Source: Flavobacteriales bacterium (GTDB lineage Bacteria; Bacteroidota; Bacteroidia; Flavobacteriales_F; PHOS-HE28). Taken from it: a stretch of 64,000 bases of DNA. The stretch covers positions 520,254 through 584,253 of the forward strand of contig JADJQW010000002.1 in assembly GCA_016712535.1 (NCBI GenBank). Reading direction: 5' to 3'. Of this stretch, positions 2,653-64,000 are shown in pieces. The position numbers were made by a program, and so were the translations under genes. The stretch's first letter is position 1, and every line of letters starts with the position of its first letter. The notes under the pieces were generated by a model. The model searched no databases. It had not been told where the DNA came from and saw only the letters and a program-made list of their open reading frames with translations.

Positions 2653-2674
2653 TCGGATACGGATTCCGTTTGTC

Positions 2675-2703
2675 GAAGGGCGCTCCATCATGGAGCGCCC
2701 TTC
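2675..2703. terminator. Bidirectional hairpin between convergent genes (12-bp perfect stem GAAGGGCGCTCC/GGAGCGCCCTTC, 5-nt loop)
   Basis: Perfect inverted repeat read directly from the sequence. It lies between the stop of the 1345..2652 gene and the stop of the minus-strand SDR gene. Coordinates are approximate (+/-2). Confidence 0.45.
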
Positions 2704-2722
2704 GCGCATTCAGGGCAAGGGG

Positions 2723-3505
2723 TCAGAGGGAGGCCGTGCGCCCGCCATCCACAGGCAGGTTGATGCCGTTGATGCACGCACCGGACGGTCCGGCCAGGAA
2801 TGCCACCGCGAACGCGACCTCTTCGGGCCTGGCGAAACGGCGGAGCGGTATCTCAGCGCGCATTTCCTCGGATGCGTGCTCCTCGCTGATGCCCTGCTTG
2901 GCGGCCTTGTTGCGGATGATCGCTGTGAGGCGGTCGGTCTCGGTGGCCCCAGGCAGCACGTTGTTCACCGTGATTCCGAATGGCCCGAGCTCATTGGCCA
3001 TGGTCTTGGCCCAATTGGCCACCGCTGCGCGAATGGCGTTGCTCACGCCCAGGTTGTGCAGCGGCTGCTTCACGCTTGTGCTGATGATGTTGATGATGCG
3101 GCCGTGCCCGCGCTGCTTCATGCCGGGCACCAAGGCGCGAGCAACGGCCTGGTAAGCGATCAGGTGCTGGCGAAAGGCGGCTTCGAAGGCGATGGTGTCC
3201 GCCTCGTGCGCAGGTCCGGGAGCTGGCCCACCGCTGTTGTTCACCACGATATCAATCGGTGATTCGGCCGCGCGCGCCGCGATCAGCGAGGCTAGGGTTT
3301 CCGTATCGCTCACATCCACGACGATGGAGCGATGCGGCGCATGGGCAGCGGGCAATTCGCGCAGCAAGGCATCTAATCGCGATTGGTCGCGGGCCACGGC
3401 GGTTATGCTCGCGCCAAGACCGGCCAGCACCTGTGCCGAAGCCTTCCCGATCCCTTGCGAAGCGCCCATCACCAAGGCGTGCTGCCCATCGAGTCTGATA
3501 TCCAT
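2723..3505 (-). CDS. Classical short-chain dehydrogenase/reductase (SDR) family oxidoreductase
   Basis: [13 protein letters not shown] Rossmann motif, a NNSGG segment and overall SDR layout. Start chosen at Met 3505 ([14 protein letters not shown]). An upstream Met at 3550 is possible. Confidence 0.7.
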
Positions 3506-4780: not shown

Positions 4781-4881
4781 CGGGTCATTGTTGATTCGAT
4801 GAAGAGCGCAGTGCAGGACCCGATCCGCCGGTCTTCGAACTTTGGCGCGGTCTTCGTTAACGAAATGCAAAACCCTTGAAT

Positions 4882-5499
4882 ATGCGCTCTTCAAACTTCT
4901 CGTTCTGCGCCACGGCCGCGCTCCTCCTCTCCGGTGCTGTTGCATCTGCGCAATCCTTCGATGTAGGAAGCAATGGAATCAACCTGGGCCTTGGCCTCGG
5001 TGGCGGCAGGTACTCCTACATCACGGGTGTCGGCAACTACAGGGTCTCACCGGCTTTTGTGCTTTCCTACGACCGCGGGATCACCCAGCTCGGCCCCGGC
5101 GTGCTCGCCATTGGGGGCATGATCGCCAATCAAACGGTGAAGTACGAGTACAACTACAGCTCCTTCGGGTACACGTATAACTACGACCGGCGCTGGTCGA
5201 ACACCTTGGTTGGCGCCCGAGGCACTTGGCATTGGAATGACTGGCATGGCAACGACAAGCTTGATCTGTATGCAGGTGTATTCGCCGGTTATAACATCGG
5301 GACCTATCGTAACAAGTCGACCAGGACCCTTAACGGAGTGACGACTACCTGGGATGATGGATATTCCGCTACCTCAAGTTACCTGAGGAGCGGTGTCTTC
5401 GCCGGCTGCCGTTATCTCTTCACGGAGAAGTTCGGCGTTTATGGAGAGTTGGGCTATGGCATCGCCTATCTGAACGCCGGGGTCACTTTGGTGCTCTGA
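4882..5499 (+). CDS. Outer-membrane beta-barrel (porin-family/OmpW-like) protein
   Basis: Signal peptide (AALLLSGAVASAQS), Gly/Tyr-rich alternating beta-strand pattern and a C-terminal aromatic-rich strand. ATG at 4882; the ORF-track start at 4876 is TTG. Confidence 0.55.
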   Translation: MRSSNFSFCATAALLLSGAVASAQSFDVGSNGINLGLGLGGGRYSYITGVGNYRVSPAFVLSYDRGITQLGPGVLAIGGMIANQTVKYEYNYSSFGYTYNYDRRWSNTLVGARGTWHWNDWHGNDKLDLYAGVFAGYNIGTYRNKSTRTLNGVTTTWDDGYSATSSYLRSGVFAGCRYLFTEKFGVYGELGYGIAYLNAGVTLVL

Positions 5500-38587: not shown

Positions 38588-39649
38588 TCACTCCGGATCA
38601 CTGAACGCCGGATCGTTCAGGAAGCGCTCATCGGTGAGGGCTTGCAGGAAGGCCTTGAGGTCGGCGCGCTCCTGGGCATCGAGGTCGATCTGGCCGCTGG
38701 TCCATGGCCACATGTGATTGTCCAGATTGGGCTCATTGATGTTCACGCTGTCGGCGTAGAAGTCGATCACTTCTTCAAGCGTGGCGAAGCGCCCATCGTG
38801 CATGTAGGGCGCGGTGACGGCAATGTTGCGCAGGCTGTTCACCTTGAAGCGGCCGCGGTCGCTCACGAGTCCGGTGATCTCCGCCAATCCTTGATCCGGT
38901 CCGGGCGCCATGCCGATGTTGCGTAGGTCGTGGTCCTGGAAGAGCGGCGCCATGTGGCAGAGGTCGCACTCGGCTTCGCCGAAGAAGAGGTCCATGCCGC
39001 GTATCTCGGCATCGGACATGGCCGTGGCATCACCGCTGTAGAAGTAGCGGTCGAAGGGCGAATCGAAGCTGAGCAGCGTGCGCTCGAATTGCGCTATGGC
39101 TTTCACCACGCGCACGCTGTCAATGTCCGGTGATCCGAAGGCGCGTGCGAAAAGCTCGGGATAGTTGGGCAGTCGGCGGAGCCGTTCCTCCACCACGGGC
39201 CAGCTGTTGCGCATCTCGAGGTGATTCACCACGGGGCCGAAGGCTTGCTCTTCCAACGAAGCCGCGCGGCCATCCCAGAAGAGGAGATGGTCCCAGAGCA
39301 TGTTCTGCACGGGCATCGATTGCCGCCGCCCCACGGACCCATCCGATCCGAGCGAGAATCTACGCGGGTCGCTGAAGGCGAACTCCTGCTGGTGGCAGCT
39401 GCTGCAGCTGATCGAGTAGTTGTCCGACAGCGCTTTCTCATAGAACAGCTTGCGGCCCAGCGCAACGCCTTCCACGGTGAGCGGATTGTCGGCGGGCAGG
39501 TTCATCGGATGCGGCAGGTTCTGCGTCCAAGGCGGCAGTTCCAGCGCCAAGGGCGTGGGCCCCGTGAAGGCATCGGCCTGCTCCACGGCGGGATCCTTCC
39601 GGCACGCCGCGATGGCGAGCAAGGCGAAGAGGAAGGGGAGGCGCCGCAT
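38588..39649 (-). CDS. Di-haem cytochrome c peroxidase (CCP/MauG family), lipoprotein
   Basis: Lipobox LLAIAAC. Two haem sites, CSSCHQQ and CDLCHMAP. Conserved ...VTAPYMHDGRFATLEEVIDFY block. Confidence 0.8.
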   Translation of the reverse strand: MRRLPFLFALLAIAACRKDPAVEQADAFTGPTPLALELPPWTQNLPHPMNLPADNPLTVEGVALGRKLFYEKALSDNYSISCSSCHQQEFAFSDPRRFSLGSDGSVGRRQSMPVQNMLWDHLLFWDGRAASLEEQAFGPVVNHLEMRNSWPVVEERLRRLPNYPELFARAFGSPDIDSVRVVKAIAQFERTLLSFDSPFDRYFYSGDATAMSDAEIRGMDLFFGEAECDLCHMAPLFQDHDLRNIGMAPGPDQGLAEITGLVSDRGRFKVNSLRNIAVTAPYMHDGRFATLEEVIDFYADSVNINEPNLDNHMWPWTSGQIDLDAQERADLKAFLQALTDERFLNDPAFSDPE

Positions 39650-39676
39650 GCGTGGCGAAGATCGATAGTGCGACGA

Positions 39677-40750
39677 TCAACGGCGGTGACCGGGGGGGCC
39701 GAAACGCGGATTAACGAGGAAAGCCGAATCGGTGAGCGTGCGCAGGAAGGCCACCAGGTCCGTGCGGTCCTGCTTGGAGAGCCGCACTTCGCCTTTGCGC
39801 CAGGGCAGCATGTGCTCATCGAGCGTGGGCGATGCCGTGAACACGTCATCCGCATAGAAATCGACGACCTGCTCCAGCGTGGCGAATCGGCCATCGTGCA
39901 TGTAGGGCGCCGTAACGGTGATGTTGCGGAGCGAAGGGGTCTTGAATCGCCCCGCGTGCCAGGGCAGGCCCGTGCGAGCACCCATGCCGAGGTCCGTGGG
40001 CACGCTGTCGAGCCCGATGTTCAGCACATGATGCCCCTTGAAGAGCGGCGGCTCGTGGCAATCGACGCAATGCGCGCGGGTGAAGAAGAGGTCCTTGCCG
40101 CGCTTCTCCTGCGCATTGAGCGCATCGGCCTGCTTCCCGTAGAAGTAGCGGTCGAATCGCGAATCGAGTGAGACCATGGTGCGCTCGAACTGCGCCAGGG
40201 CGAATGCGATGCGCAGGCTGTCGATGCGCGCATCGCCGAAGGCGGCGGCGAAGAGCGGCGGATAACGCTTGTCCTGCGCAAGGCGATGGCTCACTTCGAT
40301 CCAGCGGCTCGCCATCTCGCGGTGCGCGGTCACCGGCTCGAAGGCCTGCAGCTCGAGGCTGAGGGCGCGGGCGTCCCAGAAGAAGAAATGGTCCCACGCC
40401 AGGTTCATCAAAGGCATGCTGTTGCGCGCGGTGCGCTGGCCGCTCATGCCGCTGGAGAAGCGCGCGCTATCCGCGAAGGCGAAGCGCTGCAGGTGGCAAC
40501 TGGCGCAAGAGAGCGATCCATCGGCGCTCAGCGCTTTCTCATGGAAGAGCATGCGGCCCAGCGCTGCGCCTTCCACGGTGAGCGGATTATCGTAGGGGGA
40601 ATCGAGGCGGAGCGCGGTGTCGGCGATAGCCCAGGCGGGGAGCTCGAGTCGCAGGGGTGTTGATCCGGTTGGTGCAGCGTTCTTGGGCGGATGATGGCAT
40701 GCCATCAGGGCCGCGAGAGCGGTCGGAAGTACGAATCGATTCGCTGACAT
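39677..40750 (-). CDS. Di-haem cytochrome c peroxidase paralog (CCP/MauG family), lipoprotein
   Basis: Lipobox ALMAC. CASCHLQ and CVDCHEP haem sites. About 55% identical to the downstream paralog (VTAPYMHDGRFATLEQVVDFY). Confidence 0.8.
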   Translation of the reverse strand: MSANRFVLPTALAALMACHHPPKNAAPTGSTPLRLELPAWAIADTALRLDSPYDNPLTVEGAALGRMLFHEKALSADGSLSCASCHLQRFAFADSARFSSGMSGQRTARNSMPLMNLAWDHFFFWDARALSLELQAFEPVTAHREMASRWIEVSHRLAQDKRYPPLFAAAFGDARIDSLRIAFALAQFERTMVSLDSRFDRYFYGKQADALNAQEKRGKDLFFTRAHCVDCHEPPLFKGHHVLNIGLDSVPTDLGMGARTGLPWHAGRFKTPSLRNITVTAPYMHDGRFATLEQVVDFYADDVFTASPTLDEHMLPWRKGEVRLSKQDRTDLVAFLRTLTDSAFLVNPRFGPPGHRR

Positions 40751-40764
40751 GGCGGGGTCCGGAT

Positions 40765-41067
40765 TCAGCGCCGCCGCTTCTTCGATCGCAATGGCCTGCG
40801 ACTCGTATGGAAAACACTGTACACAATGGCTAGGCCATCCGTCAACTCGAACACGATGCAATACGGGAAGTCCTGGACCGGGGCGTATCGGAATCCGTTC
40901 ACCCGTTCAGGGTAGCTGCATGTCACGCGAACCAGGTCCTCAATGGCTTTGAGCACTGCTGTTTCGAAGCGCGCGCCAAGTTTCGGTTGCTCGAGCTCGT
41001 AGTGCAATGAGGCCTCCTGCCATTCCTGCCAAGCCAGGTCGCGCAGCTCAATGGCCTTCGCCTTCAT
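40765..41067 (-). CDS. Type II toxin, RelE/ParE family
   Basis: 100 aa; ...FRYAPVQDFPYCIVFELTDGLAIVYSVFHTSR matches the RelE/ParE C-terminal pattern. Start overlaps the antitoxin stop (ATGA). Confidence 0.65.
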   Translation of the reverse strand: MKAKAIELRDLAWQEWQEASLHYELEQPKLGARFETAVLKAIEDLVRVTCSYPERVNGFRYAPVQDFPYCIVFELTDGLAIVYSVFHTSRRPLRSKKRRR

Positions 41068-41285
41068 GCGCGCTTGCGCTTCAGCATGGCCTTCACCTCC
41101 TTCAGGGAGTATCCCTTGCCTTTGCCTTGCCGCCGCGCTTCTCGCCGCTCCTCGAGCATGGCCAATTGCTCCTTGGTGAATCGGAACTCGCCGGCCTCAG
41201 CCTCCAACGCCTTGCTCACCTTGGCCAGCACATGTTCATCATTGGTGGCAATGATGCGTTCGATCAGGTCGAGCTTCGTGAACAT
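41064..41285 (-). CDS. Antitoxin, putative addiction-module component (TIGR02574-like)
   Basis: 73 aa; MFTKLDLIERIIATNDEHVLAKVSKALEAEA... resembles TIGR02574-family antitoxins. Immediately upstream of the RelE/ParE toxin. Confidence 0.6.
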   Translation of the reverse strand: MFTKLDLIERIIATNDEHVLAKVSKALEAEAGEFRFTKEQLAMLEERREARRQGKGKGYSLKEVKAMLKRKRA

Positions 41286-41339: not shown

Positions 41340-41450
41340 ATTGGCATTCAACCCTCAGCCCTCGAACGCTGCAGCATCAGTGACGGCTGTTAACCCTCAA
41401 CCTGCCTTGTCATCCCGGGCTTGACCCGGGACAACCCTCAACACCCAACC
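41340..41450. repeat. Array of CAACCCTCARC motifs plus a 7-bp palindrome (TCCCGGG-CTTGA-CCCGGGA) in the antitoxin/murB intergenic region; shares an exact 12-mer with the 31654..31773 element
   Basis: TTCAACCCTCAGCC, TTAACCCTCAACCTG and ACAACCCTCAACACCCAACC, read directly. AACCCTCAACCT also occurs at ~31735. Confidence 0.4.
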
Positions 41451-41452
41451 GC

Positions 41453-42466
41453 CTAGATGATATTCACCTCGCGCTCCAGCTCCACGCCGAAACGCTCGCG
41501 CACGCTGCGAAGCACTTGATCGCTCAGTTCCCAGACCTCAGCGCCTGTGGCGCCGCCGTGGTTCACCAGCACCAGTGCCTGCTTCTCATGCACCCCGCAT
41601 GCGCCGATGCGCCTGCCCTTCCAGCCGCATTGCTCAATGAGCCAGCCTGCCGCGAGCTTGCTGTGGCCTTCGCCTGCTGGATAGACCGGTGCGTTCGGGT
41701 GAGCGAGCTTGATGCGCTCTGCGACGCGTGCATCCACCACCGGGTTCTTGAAGAAGCTCCCTGCGTTGCCCAGCACCTTGGGGTCGGGCAATTTGCTGCT
41801 TCGGATGGCGATCACGGCATCGCTCACATCCTTGATCGTCGGTTGCGCCACGCCCATTCGGGACAGCTCACCTTGGATGTCGCCGTAGGCGGTGCGGATG
41901 AGGTGATCGCGCTTCGTGAGGGTGAAGCTGACATTCAGGATGATGAAACGATCCTTGCCCTCGCGCTTGAAGAAGCTCTCGCGGTAGCCGAACGCACAAG
42001 CCGAGCGATCGAAGCGAATGATCTCACCATCGCTCACGCGCAAGGCTTCCAGCGACACGAAGCAATCCTTGATCTCCACGCCATAGGCGCCGATATTCTG
42101 CATCGGCGCGGCGCCCACCTTGCCGGGAATCAGGCTGAGGTTCTCGAGCCCGCCCCAGCCCTTGGCCACGCAATGCATCACCAGGTCATGCCACACCACG
42201 CCAGCGCCAGCGCGCACCACGACGCGATCGTCGGTCTCGGCTTCGATTGCGATGTCCGGGACTTCATTCAGCAGCACCAGTCCTTCGAAATCGCGGGTGA
42301 AGAGGATGTTGCTGCCGCCGCCAAGCACGAGGCGCGGCAGGGCGCTGAGCTCGGGCGCGGCCAGCAGCGCGCGCAATTCTTCCACCGTTTGGAATCGGCC
42401 AAGTGCATCCGCCTTTGCGGCTATGCCGAAGGTGTTGAAGGGCTGGAGGTCGGCGTTGCGGAGCAC
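41453..42466 (-). CDS. murB: UDP-N-acetylenolpyruvoylglucosamine reductase
   Basis: 337 aa; FNTFGIAAKADALGRFQTVEELRALL...LVLGGGSNILFTRDFEGLVL. FAD-binding MurB. Confidence 0.85.
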   Translation of the reverse strand: MLRNADLQPFNTFGIAAKADALGRFQTVEELRALLAAPELSALPRLVLGGGSNILFTRDFEGLVLLNEVPDIAIEAETDDRVVVRAGAGVVWHDLVMHCVAKGWGGLENLSLIPGKVGAAPMQNIGAYGVEIKDCFVSLEALRVSDGEIIRFDRSACAFGYRESFFKREGKDRFIILNVSFTLTKRDHLIRTAYGDIQGELSRMGVAQPTIKDVSDAVIAIRSSKLPDPKVLGNAGSFFKNPVVDARVAERIKLAHPNAPVYPAGEGHSKLAAGWLIEQCGWKGRRIGACGVHEKQALVLVNHGGATGAEVWELSDQVLRSVRERFGVELEREVNII

Positions 42467-42619
42467 GTCTATAGGCGGACAAGTTTACCGGAGAAAGCAC
42501 AGCCATGAGTGCAGGGTAATTGCGGCGCCGGATGCCTAGCCTATTGCGATTGCTCTTAGATTCGCTCTGCCGTGGCCAATAGCATGGTCCGAATTAGGTC
42601 TGAACAAACACGACCAGAC

Positions 42620-43588
42620 ATGCACTCGGCATTCCAGCTTTGCCTTGCGCTGCTTGCGCCCGGCTTGTGCGCACAAAACCTGGTGCCCAATCCGAGCTTC
42701 GAGATGGTGGATACATGCCCGCAGTTTCCCCTCGTGCTGGGCTACCAGCCAGGGGCGGTGCCCCAGCATTGGTACAGTTCGAGCGATACCCCGGATTATT
42801 TCAACTCTTGTGAGGATAACGATGTTGGCGGTGTACCTAACAACGTTTTCACGCACCAATTGGCTCACGATGGGGGCGCATATTCGGGAATGTGGTCATT
42901 CCTCGCGGACGACCATAGGGAGATGATTGGAGTTGAGTTATTGAGCGACCTGGTCGTCGGTGAGACCTACTACGCAAGTTTCTACGCCAACGCTGCTTTC
43001 GGCGGCAGTCAGGGAACCGGCCGCGTATGCGATAATCTCGGGTTGCTCTTTTGCACAGCCCCGTACTACTGGCTCTATGGGTCGTCCATGCCGGAATTCG
43101 GCTGTCGCAACTACGCGCACGTGTGGTCAACCGAGGTCATCAGCGATACCTCTGCGTGGGTGCTCGTGAGCGGGGCATTCGTTGCGGATTCAGCCTATCG
43201 GTACATGGTTGTTGGGAATCACTTCGACAACGCCAACACGGTTACCGATAGCCTGGGCCCGAACCCGAACGCCTATCAATTGGTTGATCAGGTCTGTGTC
43301 TCACTGAACCCTTCGCAATGCCCGTTGATCAACGGAGCGGGAGAGTTTTCCAGGACATGGATTGGTGTCCATCCGAATCCTGCGAAGGATGTATTCCAGG
43401 TCTCCTGGGAAGGGCGGGCCAACCGACTGCATGTGTTCGATATGGTCGGTCGGAGCATCTGGCAGGCCACAACACAGGGCGAGAATGGTCTTGTGGTCGA
43501 TGTTGCGCACTGGGCTCGTGGCCACTATGCAATGATTCTCGAAGGGGATAGCTGGTGCTACTCGCACAAGTTAGTTCTGGTGGAGTGA
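42620..43588 (+). CDS. Hypothetical secreted protein with a T9SS type-A C-terminal sorting domain (lower-GC gene)
   Basis: Signal peptide MHSAFQLCLALLAPGLCAQN. C-terminus IGVHPNPAKDVFQVSWEG...GHYAMILEGDSW is a T9SS CTD. Noticeably more A/T at third codon positions than neighbouring genes. Confidence 0.55.
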   Translation: MHSAFQLCLALLAPGLCAQNLVPNPSFEMVDTCPQFPLVLGYQPGAVPQHWYSSSDTPDYFNSCEDNDVGGVPNNVFTHQLAHDGGAYSGMWSFLADDHREMIGVELLSDLVVGETYYASFYANAAFGGSQGTGRVCDNLGLLFCTAPYYWLYGSSMPEFGCRNYAHVWSTEVISDTSAWVLVSGAFVADSAYRYMVVGNHFDNANTVTDSLGPNPNAYQLVDQVCVSLNPSQCPLINGAGEFSRTWIGVHPNPAKDVFQVSWEGRANRLHVFDMVGRSIWQATTQGENGLVVDVAHWARGHYAMILEGDSWCYSHKLVLVE

Positions 43589-43614
43589 CCCTTCTTCAAC
43601 AAAAACGGTAAACC

Positions 43615-45672
43615 ATGGAGAACTGGAAAACCTTCAAAAGCCTTGGCTTGGTCGTGTTCCTATTCGTCAGTGCGAAAGGCAAGGGTCAAGTATCGCAGCT
43701 GAACAATACGGTTACCGCCGTGACCGACTACATAGGCTGCGACGTGAACAGCAACCAGCCGTTGCGATTCACAACGCAGTTGAACTTTCCACATCAATGG
43801 CGAACGGATAATGCACTCCGGATGCGGCTTACACAAACGCTTACGGGCCAGTCAGTGAACGGCTAAGGAAACCGGGACCTGTCAGGGCATCTGGGAATTG
43901 GCCTGTTCACGGATCCGGATGTGAACCGGCCCTTCTCCATGCTTCACATTGATTCGGCGGGCGGGCAGGACACCGGCTACCGCCCGTGGATGAAGGTGGG
44001 CATGACGCTCACTCAATGGTCGGACCTGAGCTACTTCGGCCTGAAATCGGAGAGCAACGACGACAACCATGCGGTGATTGCTTGGAGCGATAACCAAACG
44101 GGCTTGGATGGCCCGGACCTGTTGAAATTCATCTTTTTGATGAACAACAACACAAGCGGTCCAACGGCCGCTTTGGACAATGGTTTGGAGGCGGCCCGCT
44201 TCCTGCCACACACCAGCGGGAATCAATCGTTCTTCGGTGTTGGAGATTGGTTCACGGCTGGCCTCAATCCGACGGAACGCGTCGATCTTCTTGATGGTCG
44301 CTTACGCATCCGCCAGCTTCCGGATGATTCGGAGACTGACCAGGCCTTCAAGGTGATGGTAGTGGACGACACGAACGACCCGTTGGAACGCGGTGTGGTG
44401 AAGTGGAAGAACATCAACCTAAGCGCTGATTGCGATTGGGTGGTGCAGACTGGAGACCCGCATGTGTCGAGCGTGTACGATGGGAGCAGCTGCTTGTGGG
44501 ACCGTCGGCATGGCGTGGGCATCGGCATGGATGTGCCCCGCGCCAAATTGCACGTGCATCACAACAACTATGAGTTGCTAGCTCGCATTGGTACCTGGTC
44601 TAGGACCGAGTCGGATGATTTTCAGAATGAGTTCCAGGGGGTCTTGGGCGAATGTGGTCCTATAGATCCTGACGGCTTCTTTGGCCACGCTGAAGGAGTA
44701 CAAGGACTCGCCTACAACTGCAAGACCACCATCGGTGTGCATGGCCACGGCCGTTACGACTCCCAACAACCGGGAACCGGCACCGGATTCCTGGTGGGCG
44801 TGCTCGGCGTGGCCGAGTACGATCAGCCGTGGCAGGCTTCATTCTCCGCAGGCGTGTATGGTCGATCCATAGCCCCGCAAGGCGCTGGCCAGGCATGGGC
44901 TGGTTTCTTCCAGGGCGATGTGATGATCACCGGGAACGGTTTTGTTAATGGGGCCATCCCCATCACCTCCGATGCTCAGTTCAAGACCGGCGTGGAGGAA
45001 TTGACAGGCGCCTCGGAGTTGCTATCTGCCTTGCAGCCGAAGCGCTACTCCTTCAATGACCTTGGGCAATCCGTGGTCGGTTTGCCGGATGGTGAGCAAC
45101 TCGGGTTCATCGCGCAGGAATTGGAGGAGGTGCTTCCAGATTTGGTGCATGAAACACAGCGACCGGCTGATCTGAATGATGCAGGCGATGTCGTCCAAGA
45201 AGCCATCGACTACAAAGCGGTGAACTACATCGGGCTCATCCCGGTCCTGGTTGCGGGCTTCCAGGAATTGCAAGGGCGCGTTGCGGCGCAGGAGTCGGTG
45301 ATCGCGCAGCTCCAGGAAGAACTCGCCGCCTGTTGCGCCGCCTCGAACGACGATGGCACGCGCTCAATTACGGGGAGCACGACCGATGAGGGCTCCATCA
45401 CCCCCACCCAGGAGCGCCTGCTCCGCATCGCACCCAATCCCTTCACCGACCGCACCACGCTCTTCTGCACGCTGGAGCACGCAGGCCGCATGCAGTTGCT
45501 GGCCAACAGTACCGATGGCCGCAGCTTGATGGTGCTGAGCGAGGGCCAGCGCGAGGCCGGTGAGTTCCAGTATGAATGGAGCACGGAGAAACTCGCGCCC
45601 GGCGTGTACTACATCAACCTCTTGCTCGACGGCGAGCCGGTGGTGAAGCGCGCGGTGAAAGTGGGGAAGTAA
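43615..45672 (+). pseudogene. Tail-fibre-domain / S74 intramolecular-chaperone-domain surface protein with a T9SS CTD, interrupted by a single in-frame TAA at 43864..43866
   Basis: ORF 43615..43866 (signal peptide MENWKTFKSLGLVVFLFVSAKG) and ORF 43921..45672 are in the same frame, separated only by TAA. The downstream part has no start or signal peptide of its own. It ends with an endosialidase-chaperone-like segment (LSALQPKRYSFNDLG...GFIAQELEEVLPDLV...IDYKAVNYIGLIPVLVAGFQEL) and a T9SS CTD (LRIAPNPFTDRTTL...GVYYINLLLDGE). Confidence 0.5.
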
Positions 45673-45767
45673 GGGATTGACCTAAGTGAGATTCCGGATG
45701 GCTGGGTCCATCGCGCTTCGCGCGCCCAGCCTCCGTAATGAGGCCTTCGGCGAAATGCGAGTCGAAC

Positions 45768-45799
45768 GAACGGCCCGGAGCAGCAACTCCGGGCCGTTC
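45768..45799 (+). terminator. Hairpin (11-bp stem GAACGGCCCGG/CCGGGCCGTTC) after the tail-fibre-like gene, just upstream of the GT4 start
   Basis: Read directly from the sequence. A second weaker hairpin lies at ~45700..45730. Confidence 0.4.
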
Positions 45800-45810
45800 C
45801 TTTGGCGCTC

Positions 45811-55970: not shown

Positions 55971-58900
55971 CTACTTCAGCACAGTCACGTGCCCGACCCT
56001 TTCGGTCAGCTCGTTGGTGAGCTTGTTCTTGAACTTCATCTTCCACACATACACATCCTCCTGCACCACTTCGCCTTGGTAATCGCCGCCCCAGGGCGCA
56101 TGCACCTGTTCACTCCGGGTGAGCAGCAATCCCCATCGGTCGAAGATCATGAACTCGTAGTCCTTCACGAGCTGCGGAAGGTTGAAGATGGGCATGAACG
56201 TGTCGTTCTCGCCGTCGCCATTCGGGGTGACGGCATTGGGCACCCAGACCACGAGCGCGTCGAGCACCTCGACCGGCTCGCAATGCGTGTCGGCGCAGCC
56301 GTTGGCATCGTACGCGGTGAGGCAGACCATGTAAGTATCACCCAATCCGCCGGGGAAGGTGAACGATGGTGAGGTGGCTGTGCTGCTTCCCACGCCTCCG
56401 AAATCCCAAGAGAAGCTCACCGCATTCGGCGATGAGGTGTTCGTGAAGTCCGCGGTTGATGAGCCTACGTAAAGCGTCTCTGGCGCGAAGTCGAAGTCGG
56501 CCACAACGGGTGCCGGGCGCGCGATCGTGGCCATTCCAGAAGCCGAGCAGCCGTTCGCATCCTGCATCAGCACCACGTATTGCCCAGGGCAGAGTCCGGT
56601 GAACACGCTGCCGGAGCCGAATGCGCCGCCGTTCAAGCTGAAGAGCGCGCCTTCTGGATCGACCACTGTGATGCTGCCGTCGCAAGCGCCGGGACAGGTC
56701 TCGTCGGTGGCGAGGATCGTGTCGATCACCAGCGGTTCCGGTTCATCGATGCTGAACGGAACGATGGTGAAGCATCCGTTCTCGTCGAGGACGGTCACGG
56801 TGTATTCACCAGCGCAGATGCCCGTTGCACTGGGCGAATTGCCCGCGATGGAGCCTGACCAAGCGTAGTCGTATGCACCGTTGCCGCCCGTTGCGGATAC
56901 GCTTGCCGTTCCATCGCAAACGCCGTTGCAGATGGCGTCGGTCAAGGCGACTACGGGAACGATCGCATCCGTGAAGATGATCGTCACCTCATCCTGCGTG
57001 GCGCAGCCATCAGTGGATAGCACGCTCCAGGTTAGCGTGTATGGGCCGCCGGCGATCGCGGTCACGGTGCTCGTAGGCGAACCGGGATCGCTGAAGGTCA
57101 TGCCGGCCGGGCCGCTCCACGAGCCGCTTGCCCAACTGCCCGTGGCGTTCAGCGTGTATTCGAGCGTGCAGCTCACTGCATCGGGCCCGGCGTTGGGCGG
57201 CGCGATCAGGAAAACCGTGGCCGTTGAGCTCGCATAGGCATTGGGGCAGGGCAATAGGCCGAGGACCGTGTAGGTGTACACGCCTTGCGCGCTTGTCGCG
57301 GGGTCGAAGATGCCGTTGCTCGGCTGGCCTCCGGGACCGGTCCAAGTGCCACCCGCCATCGGGGTTCCGCCCAGCAACGAGAAGAGCTCGATGGCCGCGG
57401 CCTCCGGGCATAGTGTGATGGCGCCGTTCGTTCCGGCATCGGGCAAGGGGTTCACCGCCATGGTGACCGTGGCGCTCTGGTCCAAGCAGGGTGCTGTGGC
57501 TTGCACGGTGTACACATAACTGCCGGGCGCGTCCGTCGCAGGGTCGAAGTTGTTCTCGCTGGGCGTGCCGTTCGGTGCTGTCCATTCACCGCCCGCATCC
57601 GGCGATCCGTTCAGGAGGTTGAAGAGCGCGACAGGCGCATCATCGGAGCAGAGCGTGGCGCTGCCATCGATTCCAGGATCCACCGGGGCAACAATGCTCA
57701 TGGCCACAATGCTGGTGTCATTCTCACAAGGCGCAGGAACGAATAGGATGTAGGTGTAAGTGCCAGCGGCTTGTACGCTCGGATCGAAGCCGCCCGTCGC
57801 CGGGCTTCCATCCGGCGCAAACCATGATCCTCCTGCATCAGGGCTTCCACCGAGCAGATCGAAGAGGTCGATGGGAGCGTTATCGCCACAAAGCGTGGAA
57901 GCGCCATCGATTCCTGCATCCGCGTTCGAGAGCACGTTCACGGTGATCACCGCCGAGGCCGACGGACAGGGCGCCACGCCATTCACGGAGTAGGAGTAAT
58001 CGCCCGGAGCGCTTGCGCCCGGCGTGAAGATCCCGTTGGAAGTGCCGTTCGGCCCCGTCCATGTTCCTCCGGGATCGGCAGCGCCAAGCAGGGGGTAGAG
58101 GTCCACTGCATCTCCGACCACGCATAGGTTCAGGATGTCATCCGCTCCAGCGTTGGGCAGCTGCGTCACGGCCACCGTTACACTGGCCGCATCCGCCGGG
58201 CATGGTGCAGCGCCTTGAACGGTATAGGAGAACACGCCGGGTGCATCGGTTGCGGGATCGAAGGTCCCGCTGTAAGAGCTGCCACCGCTCGTAGTCCAGC
58301 TGCCGCCGGGCTCTGGCGTTCCTCCAAGGATGGCGAAGAGGTCCTGAGGCGCATTGCTGAAGCAGAGCGTAATTGCGCAATCGAGTCCTGCATCAGGCGG
58401 CGAGACCACATCCACCGTGACCGTGCTGCTCACGCTGGCGCATGGCGGCGGAACCGCGATCGTGTAGGTGTATACGCCGCTGGCCATCACAGCAGGATCG
58501 AAGAGGCCATTGAAGGCCGTTCCTGCGGGGGTGGTCCACAGGCCACCTTGATCAGGAGAGCCCTCGAGGTAGCTGAAGAGGTCATCCGGGGCAGCATTTC
58601 CACAGATGGTGAGGAAGCCAGGGCCGCCGGGATCGGGTTCGGTCACGACGGTCAGGGTTGCCGTGGCGGCATCAGCAGGGCAAGGCGTGGTTCCATTCAC
58701 CGTGTAGGTATACGCTCCCGCGCTCATCGTTGCAGGGTTGAAGGCCCCGCCTATCACCGGCGATGGTCCGCTCCATGTGCCGCCTGCATCTGGCGTGCCT
58801 CCCAGCGAGTTGATCAATGCAACGGCCGGGCTTGTGATGCACAGGGTCAATGCACCGTCGATTCCTGCATCCGGAGGCTGGATGACATTCACAACGACCG

Positions 58901-61900
58901 TGCTGCTGACGCTCGCGCAAGGCGGCGGAACAGCAATCGTGTACGTATATGCGCCGGCACTCATGGTAGCGGGGTCGAAGAGGTCACCGGCTACAGCACT
59001 GGGTCCTGTCCAGGCGCCACCAGGGTCAGGTGAGCCACCGAGCTGGGCGAACAGGCCGATCGGCGCATCGCTGAAGCATAGGGTGATGGAACCATCTGTG
59101 CCGGGGTCGGGTTCACTAACGACCGTCACCATCACCTGTGATTGATCATCAGGGCAAGGCGCCGTTCCGTTCACCGTGTAGGCGTATGCGCCAGCCGTCA
59201 TCGTTGCGGGGTTGAACATCCCGCCCGCCACCGGCGAGGGACCGCTCCACGTTCCACCCGCCTGCGCGCCGACGCCAAGCGCTGCGAACAACAATGCCGG
59301 CGGACTGCTGATGCAGAGCGTGATCGCCCCATCGGTGCCTGCGTTCGGCGGTGCGATCTCGGTGATGGTCACGGTGCTGCTCGCGTTCACGCACGGCGGC
59401 GGAACGGTGATCGTGTAGGTGTAGACGCCGGGGACCATCGTGGCGGGATCAAACAGTCCACCGACCACTGCGGAAGGCCCGCTCCACGTGCCGCCTGCAT
59501 CGGGTGTGCCGCCTAGTTCAGCGAAGAGGTCGATGGAAGCATCCGTTGCGCAGAGCGTCGCGCTGCCCGGTGCACCAGCATCCGGTGCGGCAACAACGGT
59601 CACCGTCACCTGTGATTGAGCATCAGGGCAAGGCGCCGTTCCGTTCACCGTGTAGGTGTATGCGCCAGCCGTCATCGTTGCGGGGTTGAACATCCCGCCC
59701 ACCACCGGCGAAGGACCGCTCCACGTTCCACCCGCCTGCGCGCCGCCGCCAAGCGCTGCGAACAACGATGCCGGCGGACTGCTGATGCAGAGCGTGATCG
59801 CCCCATCGGTGCCTGCGTTCGGCGGTGCGATCTCGGTGATGGTCACGGTGCTGCTGGCGTTCACGCATGGCGGCGGCACCGTGATCGTGTAGGTGTAGAC
59901 GCCGGGGACCATCGTGGCGGGGTCGTATTGTCCGCCGAGCACGGGAGAAGGGCCGCTCCATGTGCCGCCGAGATCCGGTGTGCCGCCCAATTCAGCGTAG
60001 AGGTCTATGGCCGCATCCGTGGCGCAAAGTGTCGCACTGCCGGGCGTGCCTGCATCCGGCGCAGCAACGACGTTCACCGTCACCGTGCTTTGGTCATTCG
60101 GGCATGGTGCCGTGCCGCTCACGGTGTAGGTGTACACACCTGCGCTCATCGTCGCCGGGTTGAACATGCCGCCGACGACAGGCGATGGTCCGCTCCATGT
60201 TCCGCCAGCCTGTGCGCCGCCACCCAGCGCTGCGAACAGCGATGCCGCCGGGCTGCTGATGCAGAGCGTGATCGCGCCATCGGTGCCTGCGTTGGGCGGC
60301 GCGATCTCGGTGATGGTCACGGTGCTGCTGGCGTTCACGCATGGCGGCGGCACCGCGATCGTGTAGGTGTACACCCCGGGGTTCATCGTGGCAGGGTCAT
60401 ACACGCCGCCTACTACGGGTGATGGCCCGCTCCACGCACCGCCTGCGTCGGGTGTTCCGCCCAATTCACTGAAGAGCAAGAGTGAAGCATCGATCGCGCA
60501 GAGCGTAGCGCTGCCCGGAGTCCCTGCATTCGGATTCGTCGCCACGCTCACATCAACTGTTGCGGAAACCGAGGGGCATGGGGCAGTTCCGTTGACCGTG
60601 TATGAGTACAAACCGACTGCATCCACACCGGGCGTGAAGCTTCCGGTGGAGGCGCCTCCTCCGGGCGCAGTCCAGCTTCCACCGAGGTCAGGCGTGCCAT
60701 TCAGTCCTGTGATCAGTGCTGTGGCCGGGCTCGAAGAGCAGAGCGTGAGGCCGCCATTGATGCCCGCATCGGGCATGGTGTTCACTGTGACTGTGACGAG
60801 CGCGATGTCAGCTGGACAGGGAGTTGCGCCATTGACCGCATAGGAGTAAACGCCTGATGCATCGATCCCAGGGGTGAAGGTGCCCGAATGCGCGGCTGCA
60901 TTGAAGCTCCATGCGCCACCAACTTGCGGTGCACCATTCAACAAGCCGAACAAGTCGAATGCCGCATCGATTTCACATACCGTGATTCCTCCATCGCCAC
61001 CTGCATCGGGCGGTGCGTTGATCGTCACCGTCACCGTAGATGCTGCGTCAATGCACGGCGCAGCGCCGGCGACCGTGTAGGTGTACACGCCCGCGAGCAT
61101 CGTCGCAGGATCGATCATGCCGCCGACGACCGGCGAAGGACCGCTCCATGTTCCACCGGCATCCGGCGTTCCGCCGAGCTGCGCGAAGAGACTTGCGGCA
61201 GCATCACTCGAGCAGAGCGTGATCGCGCCATCGGTCCCGGGATCAGGCGGTGCGTTGATCGTCACCGTCACCGTTGCTTGCTCATCGGGGCAAGGCGCTG
61301 TTCCGGTCACGGTGTAGGTGTACACGCCCGCGAGCATCGTCGCGGGATCAATCATGCCGCCGACGACCGCAGAAGGACCGCTCCATGCTCCACCGGCATC
61401 CGGCGTTCCGCCGAGCTGCGCGAAGAGACTTGCGGCAGCATCACTCGAGCAGAGCGTGATCGCGCCATCGGTTCCGGGATCCGGCGGTGCGTTGATCGTC
61501 ACCGTCACCGTTGCTTGCTCATCGGGGCAAGGCGCTGTTCCGGTCACGGTGTAGGTGTACACGCCCGCGAGCATCGTCGCGGGATCGATCATGCCGCCGA
61601 CGACCGGCGAAGGACCGCTCCATGTTCCACCGGCATCCGGCGTTCCGCCGAGCTGCGCGAAGAGACTTGCGGCAGCATCACTCGAGCAGAGCGTGATCGC
61701 GCCATCGGTCCCGGGATCAGGCGGTGCGTTGATCGTCACCGTCACCGTTGCTTGCTCATCGGGGCAAGGCGCTGTTCCGGTCACGGTGTAGGTGTACACG
61801 CCCGCGAGCATCGTCGCAGGATCGATCATGCCGCCGACCACTGCACTTGGACCGCTCCATGTTCCACCGGCATCCGGCGTTCCGCCGAGCTGCGCAAAGA

Positions 61901-64000
61901 GTGAAGCAGGAGCATCGCTCGAGCAGAGCGTGATTGCGCCATCGGTCCCGGGATCGGGCGGTGCGTTGATCGTCACCGTCACCGTTGCTTGCTCGTCGGG
62001 GCAAGGCGCTGTGCCTGTCACGGTGTAGGTGTACACGCCCGCGAGCATCGTCGCGGGATCGATCATGCCGCCGACGACCGGCGAAGGACCGCTCCATGCT
62101 CCACCGGCATCCGGCGTTCCGCCGAGCTGCGCGAAGAGTGAAGCAGGAGCGTCGCTCGAGCAGAGCGTGATCGCGCCATCGGTCCCGGGATCAGGCGGTG
62201 CGTTGATCGTCACCGTCACCGTTGCTTGCTCATCGGGGCAAGGCGCTGTGCCTGTCACGGTGTAGGTGTACACGCCCGCGAGCATCGTCGCGGGATCGAT
62301 CATGCCGCCGACGACCGGCGAAGGACCGCTCCATGCTCCACCGGCATCCGGCGTTCCGCCGAGCTGCGCGAAGAGTGAAGCAGGAGCGTCGCTCGAGCAG
62401 AGCGTGATCGCGCCATCGGTCCCGGGATCAGGCGGTGCGTTGATCGTCACCGTCACCGTTGCTTGCTCATCGGGGCAAGGCGCTGTGCCTGTCACGGTGT
62501 AGGTGTACACGCCCGCGAGCATCGTCGCGGGATCGATCATGCCGCCGACGACCGGCGAAGGACCGCTCCATGCTCCACCGGCATCCGGCGTTCCGCCGAG
62601 CTGCGCGAAGAGTGAAGCAGGAGCATCGCTCGAGCAGAGCGTGATCGCGCCATCGGTCCCGGGATCGGGCGGTGCGTTGATCGTCACCGTCACCGTTGCT
62701 TGCTCGTCGGGGCAAGGCGCTGTGCCTGTCACGGTGTAGGTGTACACGCCCGCGAGCATCGTCGCGGGATCGATCATGCCGCCGACGACCGGCGAAGGAC
62801 CGCCCCATGTTCCACCGGCATCCGGCGTTCCGCCGAGCTGCGCGAAGAGTGAAGCAGGAGCATCGCTCGAGCAGAGCGTGATCGCGCCATCGGTCCCGGG
62901 ATCGGGCGGTGCGTTGATCGTCACCGTCACCGTCGCGCTCTCGTCAGGGCAGGGCGCTGTGCCTGTCACGGTGTAGGTGTACACGCCCGCGAGCATCGTC
63001 GCGGGATCGATCATGCCGCCGACGACCGGCGAAGGACCGCTCCATGTTCCACCGGCATCCGGCGTTCCGCCGAGCTGCGCGAAGAGTGAAGCAGGAGCGT
63101 CGCTCGAGCAGAGCGTGATCGCGCCATCGGTCCCGGGATCAGGCGGTGCGTTGATCGTCACCGTCACCGTTGCTTGCTCATCGGGGCAAGGCGCTGTGCC
63201 TGTCACGGTGTAGGTGTACACGCCCGCGAGCATCGTCGCGGGATCGATCATGCCGCCGACGACCGGCGAAGGACCGCTCCATGCTCCACCGGCATCCGGC
63301 GTTCCGCCGAGCTGCGCGAAGAGTGAAACAGCTGGATCTGATGAACACAGCGTGATAGCACCGCTCGTGCCGGCATTCGGGGCCTGATTAATGGCGACGG
63401 TCAGTGTGGCAATGTCATTCGGGCATGGGGCCGTGCCAATGACGGTGTAGGTGTAAACACCTGGCGGATCAACTGCTGGGTCGAGGCCGCCGCTCATCGC
63501 ACCGCCTCCAGGACCTGTCCATGAACCAGTTCCATCGGGCCCACCGCCTAACTGCGCAACCATCACTACCGGCGCGCTGGTCGTGCATAGCGTAATGCTC
63601 GCGTCCAGTCCGGCGTTGGGAGGTGCGCTCTCCGAAACAGCAACGGTAGCATCAGCGTTCGGGCATGGCGCCGTTCCGTTCACCGTGTAGGTGTACACGC
63701 CAGGGTTCATCGTGGCCGGGTTGTAGTTGCCTCCAATCACCGGCGATGGCCCGGTCCAGGTGCCGCCGGGCTGCGCGTTTCCACCGAGCAGAAAGAACAT
63801 CGATTGCGCAGCATCGGTGCTGCAAACAGCGAGGCTCGTCGGCGTGCCGGCATCGGGCAACGGATATACGGTCACATTCACTGTACTGCTCACCGGCGCG
63901 CCGCACGCTCCACCGCCACCCACCGTGTAGGTGTAGATGCCCGGTGGGTCGACGCCCGGGACGAACATGTTGGAATGCGCTCCGCCGCCGGGCATCGTCC
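55971..64000 (-). CDS. Giant SprB-like cell-surface adhesin, C-terminal part (>2,670 aa in window): tandem ~79-aa Ig-like repeats, SprB-type repeats, a PKD-like domain and a type-B T9SS / gliding-motility-associated C-terminal domain. The N-terminus lies beyond the window.
   Basis: Single open frame across 8 kb. C-terminus VPNAVTPNGDGENDTFMPIF...MIFDRWGLLL...VYVWKMKF is the type-B T9SS CTD. Upstream are SprB-repeat-like units (CNGVCDGTASVSATGGNGAYDYAWSG..., CPGACDGSITVV...GQYVVLMQDANGC). Before that are at least 30 units of the pattern DAG.DG.ITLC...LF..LGG.PD.GG.W.GP...GG..DPA....G.YTYTV.G..PC.D..ATVTV. Confidence 0.8.
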   Translation of the reverse strand, partial: TMPGGGAHSNMFVPGVDPPGIYTYTVGGGGACGAPVSSTVNVTVYPLPDAGTPTSLAVCSTDAAQSMFFLLGGNAQPGGTWTGPSPVIGGNYNPATMNPGVYTYTVNGTAPCPNADATVAVSESAPPNAGLDASITLCTTSAPVVMVAQLGGGPDGTGSWTGPGGGAMSGGLDPAVDPPGVYTYTVIGTAPCPNDIATLTVAINQAPNAGTSGAITLCSSDPAVSLFAQLGGTPDAGGAWSGPSPVVGGMIDPATMLAGVYTYTVTGTAPCPDEQATVTVTINAPPDPGTDGAITLCSSDAPASLFAQLGGTPDAGGTWSGPSPVVGGMIDPATMLAGVYTYTVTGTAPCPDESATVTVTINAPPDPGTDGAITLCSSDAPASLFAQLGGTPDAGGTWGGPSPVVGGMIDPATMLAGVYTYTVTGTAPCPDEQATVTVTINAPPDPGTDGAITLCSSDAPASLFAQLGGTPDAGGAWSGPSPVVGGMIDPATMLAGVYTYTVTGTAPCPDEQATVTVTINAPPDPGTDGAITLCSSDAPASLFAQLGGTPDAGGAWSGPSPVVGGMIDPATMLAGVYTYTVTGTAPCPDEQATVTVTINAPPDPGTDGAITLCSSDAPASLFAQLGGTPDAGGAWSGPSPVVGGMIDPATMLAGVYTYTVTGTAPCPDEQATVTVTINAPPDPGTDGAITLCSSDAPASLFAQLGGTPDAGGTWSGPSAVVGGMIDPATMLAGVYTYTVTGTAPCPDEQATVTVTINAPPDPGTDGAITLCSSDAAASLFAQLGGTPDAGGTWSGPSPVVGGMIDPATMLAGVYTYTVTGTAPCPDEQATVTVTINAPPDPGTDGAITLCSSDAAASLFAQLGGTPDAGGAWSGPSAVVGGMIDPATMLAGVYTYTVTGTAPCPDEQATVTVTINAPPDPGTDGAITLCSSDAAASLFAQLGGTPDAGGTWSGPSPVVGGMIDPATMLAGVYTYTVAGAAPCIDAASTVTVTINAPPDAGGDGGITVCEIDAAFDLFGLLNGAPQVGGAWSFNAAAHSGTFTPGIDASGVYSYAVNGATPCPADIALVTVTVNTMPDAGINGGLTLCSSSPATALITGLNGTPDLGGSWTAPGGGASTGSFTPGVDAVGLYSYTVNGTAPCPSVSATVDVSVATNPNAGTPGSATLCAIDASLLLFSELGGTPDAGGAWSGPSPVVGGVYDPATMNPGVYTYTIAVPPPCVNASSTVTITEIAPPNAGTDGAITLCISSPAASLFAALGGGAQAGGTWSGPSPVVGGMFNPATMSAGVYTYTVSGTAPCPNDQSTVTVNVVAAPDAGTPGSATLCATDAAIDLYAELGGTPDLGGTWSGPSPVLGGQYDPATMVPGVYTYTITVPPPCVNASSTVTITEIAPPNAGTDGAITLCISSPPASLFAALGGGAQAGGTWSGPSPVVGGMFNPATMTAGAYTYTVNGTAPCPDAQSQVTVTVVAAPDAGAPGSATLCATDASIDLFAELGGTPDAGGTWSGPSAVVGGLFDPATMVPGVYTYTITVPPPCVNASSTVTITEIAPPNAGTDGAITLCISSPPALLFAALGVGAQAGGTWSGPSPVAGGMFNPATMTAGAYAYTVNGTAPCPDDQSQVMVTVVSEPDPGTDGSITLCFSDAPIGLFAQLGGSPDPGGAWTGPSAVAGDLFDPATMSAGAYTYTIAVPPPCASVSSTVVVNVIQPPDAGIDGALTLCITSPAVALINSLGGTPDAGGTWSGPSPVIGGAFNPATMSAGAYTYTVNGTTPCPADAATATLTVVTEPDPGGPGFLTICGNAAPDDLFSYLEGSPDQGGLWTTPAGTAFNGLFDPAVMASGVYTYTIAVPPPCASVSSTVTVDVVSPPDAGLDCAITLCFSNAPQDLFAILGGTPEPGGSWTTSGGSSYSGTFDPATDAPGVFSYTVQGAAPCPADAASVTVAVTQLPNAGADDILNLCVVGDAVDLYPLLGAADPGGTWTGPNGTSNGIFTPGASAPGDYSYSVNGVAPCPSASAVITVNVLSNADAGIDGASTLCGDNAPIDLFDLLGGSPDAGGSWFAPDGSPATGGFDPSVQAAGTYTYILFVPAPCENDTSIVAMSIVAPVDPGIDGSATLCSDDAPVALFNLLNGSPDAGGEWTAPNGTPSENNFDPATDAPGSYVYTVQATAPCLDQSATVTMAVNPLPDAGTNGAITLCPEAAAIELFSLLGGTPMAGGTWTGPGGQPSNGIFDPATSAQGVYTYTVLGLLPCPNAYASSTATVFLIAPPNAGPDAVSCTLEYTLNATGSWASGSWSGPAGMTFSDPGSPTSTVTAIAGGPYTLTWSVLSTDGCATQDEVTIIFTDAIVPVVALTDAICNGVCDGTASVSATGGNGAYDYAWSGSIAGNSPSATGICAGEYTVTVLDENGCFTIVPFSIDEPEPLVIDTILATDETCPGACDGSITVVDPEGALFSLNGGAFGSGSVFTGLCPGQYVVLMQDANGCSASGMATIARPAPVVADFDFAPETLYVGSSTADFTNTSSPNAVSFSWDFGGVGSSTATSPSFTFPGGLGDTYMVCLTAYDANGCADTHCEPVEVLDALVVWVPNAVTPNGDGENDTFMPIFNLPQLVKDYEFMIFDRWGLLLTRSEQVHAPWGGDYQGEVVQEDVYVWKMKFKNKLTNELTERVGHVTVLK
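61081..63213. repeat. Nine near-identical 237-bp (79-aa) tandem coding repeats inside the giant adhesin gene
   Basis: Same-phase ORFs of identical length at 61081, 61318, 61555, 61792, 62029, 62266, 62503, 62740 and 62977 (period exactly 237 bp). They differ by only 0-4 codons. Flanking units (60874.., 63214..) are progressively more divergent. Confidence 0.8.

Follow-up and report, generated by a model that had tools for sequence, protein, structure and literature searches.

A probable two-gene accessory islet with a knocked-out S74-type fibre gene between murB and a glycosyltransferase gene in a Flavobacteriales genome

The DNA analyzed here is a 64-kb stretch of a Flavobacteriales genome (contig JADJQW010000002.1 of assembly GCA_016712535.1, hereafter the window), in which the intergenic gap between murB and a family GT4 glycosyltransferase gene, GT1, holds two co-directional genes. 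The first, open reading frame 1 (ORF1), encodes a protein that resembles a carbohydrate-binding module (CBM) and carries a sorting domain for the type IX secretion system (T9SS); the second encodes a fibre protein with a Peptidase_S74 chaperone domain. The region is probably an accessory islet of ~3.3 kb, made up of a two-gene operon in which the fibre gene has been knocked out by a premature stop codon. The features on which this account turns are the following.

42493..45767, no strand: inserted segment (islet) relative to empty-site relatives, ~3.3 kb, boundaries approximate
42620..43588, plus strand: ORF1, 322 aa, ATG at 42620; putative signal peptide, CBM-like beta-sandwich and T9SS type-A C-terminal domain (CTD); intact
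43615..45672, plus strand: fibre gene, 685 codons, now a pseudogene
43864..43866, plus strand: premature TAA at codon 84; ancestral TAT (Tyr), T to A at 43866

To place the pair among related genomes, we compared loci (numbered L001 onwards) from several lineages. A MurB scan of species-representative genomes, with a best match of 70% identity, yielded six relatives (L017-L022, MurB 65–70% identical) in all of which murB and GT1 lie ~100 bp apart with synteny kept, the syntenic block comprising a peptidase, cytochrome c peroxidases and murB, followed by GT1, GT2, an ABC ATPase and a large TPR protein. Given the empty site in these six relatives, the two genes are extra DNA at this position. 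A sister lineage (L001 and L013-L016), by contrast with the empty relatives, carries this gene pair at this site too, with a DNA identity of 87% over the cassette and 84–88% over the flanks, and a synonymous divergence (dS) of 0.31–0.66 for the cassette and 0.47–0.78 for the flanks; this similarity means that the cassette has been co-inherited with its flanks since the sister lineage split off. The pairing itself is conserved in many uncultured Flavobacteriales, and in every fibre locus with ~1 kb or more of upstream DNA the gene immediately before the fibre gene, and co-directional with it, is ORF1-like.

The islet is bounded on the left by a conserved CAAGTTTACCGGAG box beside the murB start and on the right by a hairpin that precedes the glycosyltransferase gene.

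42480..42488, no strand: CAAGTTTAC box next to the murB start codon, invariant in a seven-sequence alignment
45761..45806, plus strand: hairpin with a 13-bp perfect core stem (45768-80/45787-99), then CCUUUGG

Conserved intergenic DNA has its left edge at this box, which does not vary between the window, its sister lineage and the relatives with an empty site; we infer that it may be a promoter element of murB. The hairpin (-38.3 kcal/mol, z = -4.7 against shuffled sequences) is kept in the sister lineage and ends 5 nt upstream of the GT1 ATG (45811). It is likely to be the transcription stop of the cassette; a simple terminator scan did not call it. A sigma-70 promoter scan returned nothing, its consensus being one that does not cover Bacteroidota promoters. 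As a separate observation, a hairpin this near the GT1 start could affect the translation or expression of GT1.

One alternative to insertion is that the murB-GT1 site held the cassette ancestrally and lost it in the relatives where it is now empty, which we consider a possibility but clearly the less probable course of events. It gains from a further relative, L023 (MurB 65%), that has ORF1-like and fibre-like genes beside murB in the same position and orientation, and from the frequent decay of the fibre family into 5' remnants and null alleles. The ORF1 copy of L023, however, is only 42% identical to that of the window, whereas unlinked ORF1 homologues reach 58–60%, so that it is no simple orthologue; the six relatives without the cassette are all equally close or closer by MurB identity; and elsewhere the cassette is found at unrelated sites (ruvX|def, RDD|lolA and aroB|aroA).

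Flanking repeats and integrase remnants, which the initial annotation of this DNA had suggested looking for, were not found. Searches for flanking direct or inverted repeats and for a target-site duplication gave only short pairs at chance level, and local alignment of the left and right junctions, for the window and for L013, scored no better than more than 50% of shuffles; a CCGGAG hexamer shared by both junctions was dismissed as too short to count. There is no tRNA gene within the 64-kb window and no integrase or phage gene among the neighbours, which are housekeeping genes in five contexts. Compared with what is expected of a prophage or integrative island, the region shows deviating composition and absence from relatives, and lacks mobility genes, a tRNA and repeats. 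We therefore rejected a classical integrative island or prophage remnant, there being no integrase, tRNA boundary, junction repeats or phage genes.

The deviating composition was measured at several scales. In 500-nt windows the GC content is 0.538–0.590 between 42.5 and 45.0 kb and 0.62–0.66 in both flanks; segment 42501-45500, with a GC of 0.571, is the minimum among the 3-kb windows tested (mean 0.629, sd 0.016, z ~ -3.6), and at 2-kb resolution the 42.5-45.7 kb region is the GC minimum of the whole window. The tetranucleotide distance of 42501-45500 from the window average has a z of +2.3, surpassed only by the repeat-rich 58-64 kb end. The shift is confined to third codon positions, with GC at first and second positions (GC1 and GC2) of the islet genes being ordinary: GC at third positions (GC3) is 0.675 for ORF1, the lowest among 40 window genes (z -2.9), and 0.729 for the fibre gene, which ranks third from the bottom (z -1.9), against a mean of 0.827 (sd 0.052) for the 38 other genes.

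Other loci bear on the meaning of this dip. Across 29 loci, each with at least 2 kb of flank, cassette GC is below host GC in 26 (mean difference -3.7 points; Wilcoxon p = 7e-8) and correlates with it (r = 0.83). At the ruvX|def, RDD|lolA and aroB|aroA sites the gene pair has a GC3 of 0.64–0.78 as against 0.79–0.92 for most neighbours. Because the cassette is below its host in nearly all loci and yet tracks host GC, low GC3 is a standing trait of the ORF1/fibre gene family and no sign of recent transfer. Low GC3 is probably also a general trait of genes for exported or surface proteins in these genomes; weaker selection on codons or frequent recombination with alleles that have diverged may lie behind the dip. 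The other window genes with the lowest GC3 are 4861-5496, 1222-2649 and 367-1218 (0.70–0.74), and the products of 4861-5496 and 1222-2649 begin with a signal-peptide-like sequence.

These results separate two statements of the initial annotation, which had noted a low-GC island and taken its composition to suggest horizontal acquisition. The region is indeed the lowest in GC, through a third-position shift, the quoted 48–56% being slightly low against the measured 54–59%. The composition does not speak for acquisition, however, given flank-like dS in the sister lineage, low GC in 26 of 29 loci and equally low GC3 in signal-peptide genes of the window; what stands of the acquisition claim is that the segment is absent from six relatives, and recent transfer is not supported. 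Import in the recent past, from a lower-GC donor or as a phage remnant whose GC has not yet ameliorated, is thus improbable. It would account for the lowest-GC segment of the window being missing from six relatives, and an S74 domain is typical of phage fibres, but the 87%-identical sister lineage carries the cassette at the same site with the synonymous divergence of its flanks, cassette GC rises and falls with host GC while staying a few points below it in nearly every locus, other signal-peptide genes share the low GC3, and integrase, tRNA, phage genes and flanking repeats were not found. The phage connection is also confined to one domain: tblastn against 50,697 phage records gave matches to the S74 domain only (at most 22% of the query among the matches listed), and a scan of IMG/VR with the N-domain motif returned no relative.

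The second part of our account is that the fibre gene is dead in the source genome. The frame 43615-45672 contains 685 codons with a single internal TAA at codon 84, within the second of the two N-terminal features.

43615..43686, plus strand: predicted Sec signal peptide MENWKTFKSLGLVVFLFVSAKGKG, then Gln (sequence and alignment consensus)
43762..44424, plus strand: conserved beta-rich N-domain, aa ~50-270 (model of an orthologue), with codon 84 inside

Tyr is the consensus residue at the TAA column and is held by the closest of 17 aligned homologues, and codon 84 is TAT in the related loci L001, L002 and L004; this makes the lesion one T-to-A substitution. Six further assemblies, each from a different sample (L007-L012; JGI 3300038320, SRR3586902, SRR11674035, SRR30482338, SRR32841054 and SRR28981375), share the TAA; they are 99.8–100% identical to the window in DNA, all read GGCTAAGGA and all encode the exact 83-aa product that ends at the TAA. 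The downstream product of the NCBI metagenome-assembled genome (MAG), MBK8226000.1 (577 aa, encoded on a 2.4-Mb contig), is identical to that of the window. The null allele is thus real, common to the whole sampled population and recent. Its recency follows from three observations. The ratio of nonsynonymous to synonymous divergence (dN/dS) against the intact sister orthologue is 0.089 overall, 0.036–0.15 in every segment downstream of the stop and 0.036 for codons 85-250; with two outgroups, amino-acid changes on the window branch are not in excess of those on the sister branch (22 versus 18, and 13 versus 15); and the 601 codons after the TAA contain no second lesion.

The TAA cuts inside the first beta-strands of the confidently modelled N-domain, so that about four strands and the signal peptide are lost to the downstream part, and a product re-initiated at GTG 43921 or ATG 43939 from the remaining 601 codons, having no signal peptide, would stay cytoplasmic. 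The initial annotation had described the TAA as separating the signal peptide from the rest and had left three options for it. The lone TAA is genuine, but it lies at codon 84, inside the N-domain; and among the options, recent inactivation is the one that agrees with the conserved downstream frame and low dN/dS.

Of the other two, readthrough or recoding of the TAA to Tyr, with full-length protein being made, is very unlikely. The 601 open codons, the Tyr of the closest homologues and a lesion at the same codon in a second lineage might each be taken in its favour, but a mutation as recent as this one accounts for the open frame, and the sister-lineage lesions are of other kinds (a frameshift and a TAG), fitting simple loss of function. 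Moreover, TAA terminates 6 of the 40 window genes, the fibre gene included, no other long window gene has an in-frame TAA, and the window has no tRNA gene and hence no suppressor tRNA. A sequencing or assembly error in a gene that is intact in the organism can be discounted for practical purposes, because, although the source is a MAG and a MAG consensus can carry errors, the identical TAA and exact 83-aa product recur in the six independent assemblies, and the TAA also in the NCBI MAG.

The knock-out in the window is not the only one. In the sister-lineage cluster eight members are intact (685 or 693 aa), and the others have lesions in the 5' part of the gene. Trp62 is changed from TGG to TAG in L015, in an NCBI MAG and in a second haplotype, P0093; a frameshift (TAT to TG-) affects codon 84, the codon of the window lesion, in L013 (2106-2140) and L014 (1770-1804); and L016 has two single-base deletions in the fibre gene. 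The sister lineage thus adds two or three null alleles to that of the window. Their concentration at the 5' end reflects ascertainment, since a product is long enough to enter the 90% cluster only if the lesion is a 5' one. That two of four lesions share one codon has a chance of ~5% by our own rough estimate; a search for repeats or structures that could turn codon 84 into a mutational hotspot found none. Such a pattern of null alleles would be expected where an exposed structure can often be lost without harm or with benefit. In the same populations, by comparison, all 15 members of the ORF1 cluster are essentially full length.

The products of the two genes were examined by profile searches and structure modelling. 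For ORF1, an AlphaFold model built with 60 homologues (pLDDT 92) places a domain of ~220 aa between the hydrophobic N-terminus and the CTD.

42674..43336, plus strand: CBM-like beta-jelly-roll domain of ORF1, assigned from the structure model; no Pfam family matches
43361..43579, plus strand: T9SS type-A CTD of ORF1, Por_Secre_tail above threshold and fold

No Pfam family was found for this ~220-aa domain. The extreme C-terminus matches Por_Secre_tail/TIGR04183, and the hydrophobic N-terminus, a putative Sec signal peptide as read from the sequence, precedes a Gln that all members of the ORF1 family share. The two products of the window are identical to MBK8225998.1 and MBK8226000.1; since NCBI labels such proteins "T9SS type A sorting domain-containing protein" and "tail fiber domain-containing protein", the genes were already known as sequences.

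The fibre protein is more complex, and its structure was modelled on P0001, an intact orthologue that is 89% identical to it. Downstream of the N-domain its features are as follows.

44434..44967, plus strand: variable Gly-rich region, aa 274-451; low pLDDT as monomer, indel-rich
44968..45339, plus strand: Peptidase_S74 chaperone/autoprotease and coiled-coil helix (Pfam, motif and fold)
45412..45669, plus strand: T9SS type-A CTD of the fibre protein (fold; sequence score below the Pfam threshold)

As in ORF1, a Gln follows the predicted signal peptide, here as the consensus residue across the homologues. In the P0001 model the N-domain is confident and beta-rich between aa 60 and 220 (pLDDT 85–94), the Gly-rich region (274-451) has low confidence, and both the S74 domain with its helix (455-575) and an Ig-like C-domain (600-685) are confident. 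The low confidence of the Gly-rich region is as expected if this segment folds only as a trimer, and we presume it to form a trimeric fibre or beta-helix with a ligand-binding tip. It is the least conserved, indel-rich stretch of the family alignment, within which a GxGxxxPxxKL motif (G302, G304, P308, K311 and L312) is nevertheless invariant among the 18 closest sequences.

The Peptidase_S74 assignment is supported by a PF13884 match of 45.5 bits against a cut-off of 22 (E = 9.2e-12), found also in 49 of 49 family members. Residues Ser452 (44968-70), Asp453 and Lys457 (44983-85) of the SDAQFK sequence, an S-D-x-x-x-K motif, are invariant in alignments of 18 and of 49 homologues; of the conserved Cys-Cys pair (45331-36) that ends the long helix, Cys574 is invariant and Cys573 is kept in at least 90% of the 49. 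The model has the chaperone fold with a C-terminal coiled-coil helix that characterizes the S74 family, and the family profile matches two chaperone domains, that of the long tail fibre of phage S16 (6f45) and that of MyRF (7dc3), with a weak match to the beta-helix of the Bdellovibrio fibre Bd2133 (8ond, E = 0.0095). The C-domain has fold matches to CTDs solved in T9SS complexes, and PF18962 matches 21 of the 49 fibre homologues. Two claims of the initial annotation are borne out by these data, namely that both genes encode T9SS cargo (both CTDs are of T9SS type, that of ORF1 above threshold and that of the fibre by fold) and that the fibre has an endosialidase-type chaperone segment. Its third description, phage tail-fibre-like, fits the S74 domain and the overall design only, nothing outside S74 being alike and the neighbours not being phage genes.

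The locus is variable among close relatives, and the fibre gene in particular behaves as a replaceable unit.

43596..45809, no strand: replaceable module; L153-L155 have a second ORF1-family paralogue there instead of the fibre gene
L107 753-6336 and L134 1266-8088, also L106, L116, L121, L126 and L023: tandem arrays, suggesting repeated duplication and deletion

Homology with L153-L155 ends at 43595, just past the ORF1 stop, and is found again from 45810, immediately ahead of the GT1 start codon. Their flanks are 82–92% identical to those of the window, the murB-ORF1 block having 82–83% DNA identity and an orthologous ORF1, and the paralogue that replaces the fibre gene is 33% identical to ORF1 with a GC3 of 0.59. 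A different exchange is seen in L157, which is 94% identical to the window from 44216 inside the fibre gene onwards, downstream GT1 included, but has upstream of this point a different 5' third of the fibre gene (frame intact, Tyr in place of the stop) and another variant of ORF1; its fibre gene (845-3076, ENA ERZ15185972) is intact and encodes 743 aa. On metagenome contigs, where arrays of the pair are frequent, each ORF1-family copy of an array is followed by a fibre 5' remnant of 94–290 aa, the last unit alone having a full-length S74 fibre gene; the diverged array by murB in L023 consists of an ORF1-like gene, a fibre 5' remnant, a further ORF1-like gene and a fibre-like gene. Over 12.5 kb compared between the window and the near-identical L007, 26 of 29 differences cluster at 41441-41894, in the 3' part of murB, which indicates a recombination tract beside the islet. 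Cassette content is probably exchanged among relatives by homologous recombination via the conserved flanks.

From this architecture we tentatively propose, by analogy with other S74 proteins and T9SS cargo, a route of export and cleavage that, taken by itself, we hold to be somewhat short of probable. The fibre protein would cross the inner membrane by Sec, trimerize on its S74 and coiled-coil part and be taken up by the T9SS through its CTD. Autoproteolysis at Ser452 might then sever the mature fibre (~aa 25-452) from a chaperone-CTD stub; the CTD being downstream of the cut, the mature fibre would lose its sorting and anchoring tag, and could either be kept on the cell by its N-domain, possibly bound to the ORF1 protein, or be released. 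ORF1 is the candidate partner because it is a strictly co-encoded CBM-like T9SS protein. A bolder and rather unlikely extension is that ORF1 and the S74 fibre make up an undescribed T9SS-dependent module for surface recognition, in which a self-cleaving trimer like the mosaic adhesive trimeric (MAT) fibres of Bdellovibrio would be held by a lectin-like partner, exposed for instance as a phage receptor or an adhesin for flocs or prey, and encoded by a contingency locus. Strain-level module swaps, tandem arrays with 5' remnants and repeated knock-outs are supporting signs of such a locus.

Several points weigh against these readings. Insertion of the cassette and its loss in L017-L022 are inseparable, as L023 carries a cassette by murB. 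The L157 contig has 2.2-fold coverage and could be an assembly chimera, and the deletions in L016 could be sequencing errors. The CTD of the fibre protein itself scores below the Pfam threshold, its N-domain has no recognizable fold or family and no attributable match in the PDB, and a trimeric beta-helix is assumed for a shaft that is modelled at low confidence. An interaction between ORF1 and the fibre is proposed from their strict adjacency only, and an S74 cut that removes the CTD seems to sit ill with export and anchoring that depend on the CTD.

Some other parts of the window deserve mention. Between the cytochrome c peroxidase genes and murB, two small overlapping ORFs on the minus strand (40765-41285; 100 and 73 aa, GC ~0.60) gave only sub-threshold matches to addiction-module antitoxins (PF09720, E = 0.011; NF048017, E = 0.009); they are absent in L017-L022 and L153 and present in L154 and L155, and are a second small variable insert beside murB. 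The peroxidase genes (38591-40861, minus strand) are two tandem di-haem (CCP_MauG) paralogues, of which relatives have one or two copies. An ORF of more than 2674 aa at 55971-63995 on the minus strand, which runs off the end of the window, encodes a signal-peptide protein with near-identical tandem repeats of ~95 aa. Its tetranucleotide composition deviates more than that of any other part of the window (z 4.6; GC3 0.71), and its C-terminus resembles the CTD of T9SS type-B/gliding-motility proteins (PNAVTPNGDGENDTF), making it an apparent further T9SS cargo.

The locus shows on a small scale how surface proteins turn over in nature in an abundant, uncultured lineage. At a few per cent of divergence the site can be empty, hold the fibre gene, or show the swap of a paralogue or of the 5' module, and at least three null alleles have arisen independently; null alleles and module turnover together suggest selection against fibre display, for example by phages. 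The findings extend the bacterial use of phage-type fibres, known from the Bdellovibrio MAT proteins, to Bacteroidota, and the placing of an S74 self-cleaver between a passenger and its T9SS tag raises a testable question on the order of folding, export, cleavage and anchoring. An incomplete search of the literature found no report that links an S74 or intramolecular chaperone domain to T9SS cargo or that describes this gene pair.

The closest known counterparts are the MAT fibres of Bdellovibrio bacteriovorus, above all the S74 subgroup (e.g. Bd3182). In these, a signal peptide precedes a conserved beta-rich N-domain and a variable tip, and the S74 domain carries SDxxxK and has been shown by experiment to cleave itself (PMC10769870). 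The fibre described here is, like them, a chromosomal, non-phage surface fibre, of analogous architecture, and its GxGxxxPxxKL motif resembles the MAT capping-loop motif, the one direct sequence link between the two families being the weak 8ond match. It differs in being shorter (685 versus ~1000 aa), in that S74 is not terminal and is followed by a linker and a T9SS CTD, in always being paired with a CBM-like T9SS gene, and in a host that is no known predator. Phage fibres and tailspikes (endoNF, 3GW6; S16 gp37, 6F45; the T5 L-shaped fibre) share the sequence, fold and Ser/Lys dyad of S74, and phage receptor-binding tips likewise have a variable region right upstream of the chaperone. Nothing is alike outside S74, however, no phage genes lie nearby, and a predicted Sec signal peptide and a T9SS CTD suggest that the fibre is exported by the cell and not assembled into a virion. 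The likeness to the ICA domain of MyRF, a eukaryotic membrane-bound transcription factor, is at the level of the domain only. With T9SS type-A cargo (gingipains, mirolase, and RemA and NucA of Flavobacterium) the fibre shares a predicted signal peptide followed by Gln, an Ig-like CTD of ~80 aa and a PNPF-type motif, and it departs from them in having a self-cleaving chaperone between passenger and CTD that is predicted to detach the passenger. As a locus, finally, the islet recalls the replacement-type flexible islets of the O-antigen kind, with a fixed site between conserved genes, content that differs among close relatives, low GC, no mobility genes and recombination tracts in the flank; it differs from them in having only two genes and in encoding protein fibres and lectins where those islets encode the synthesis of glycans.

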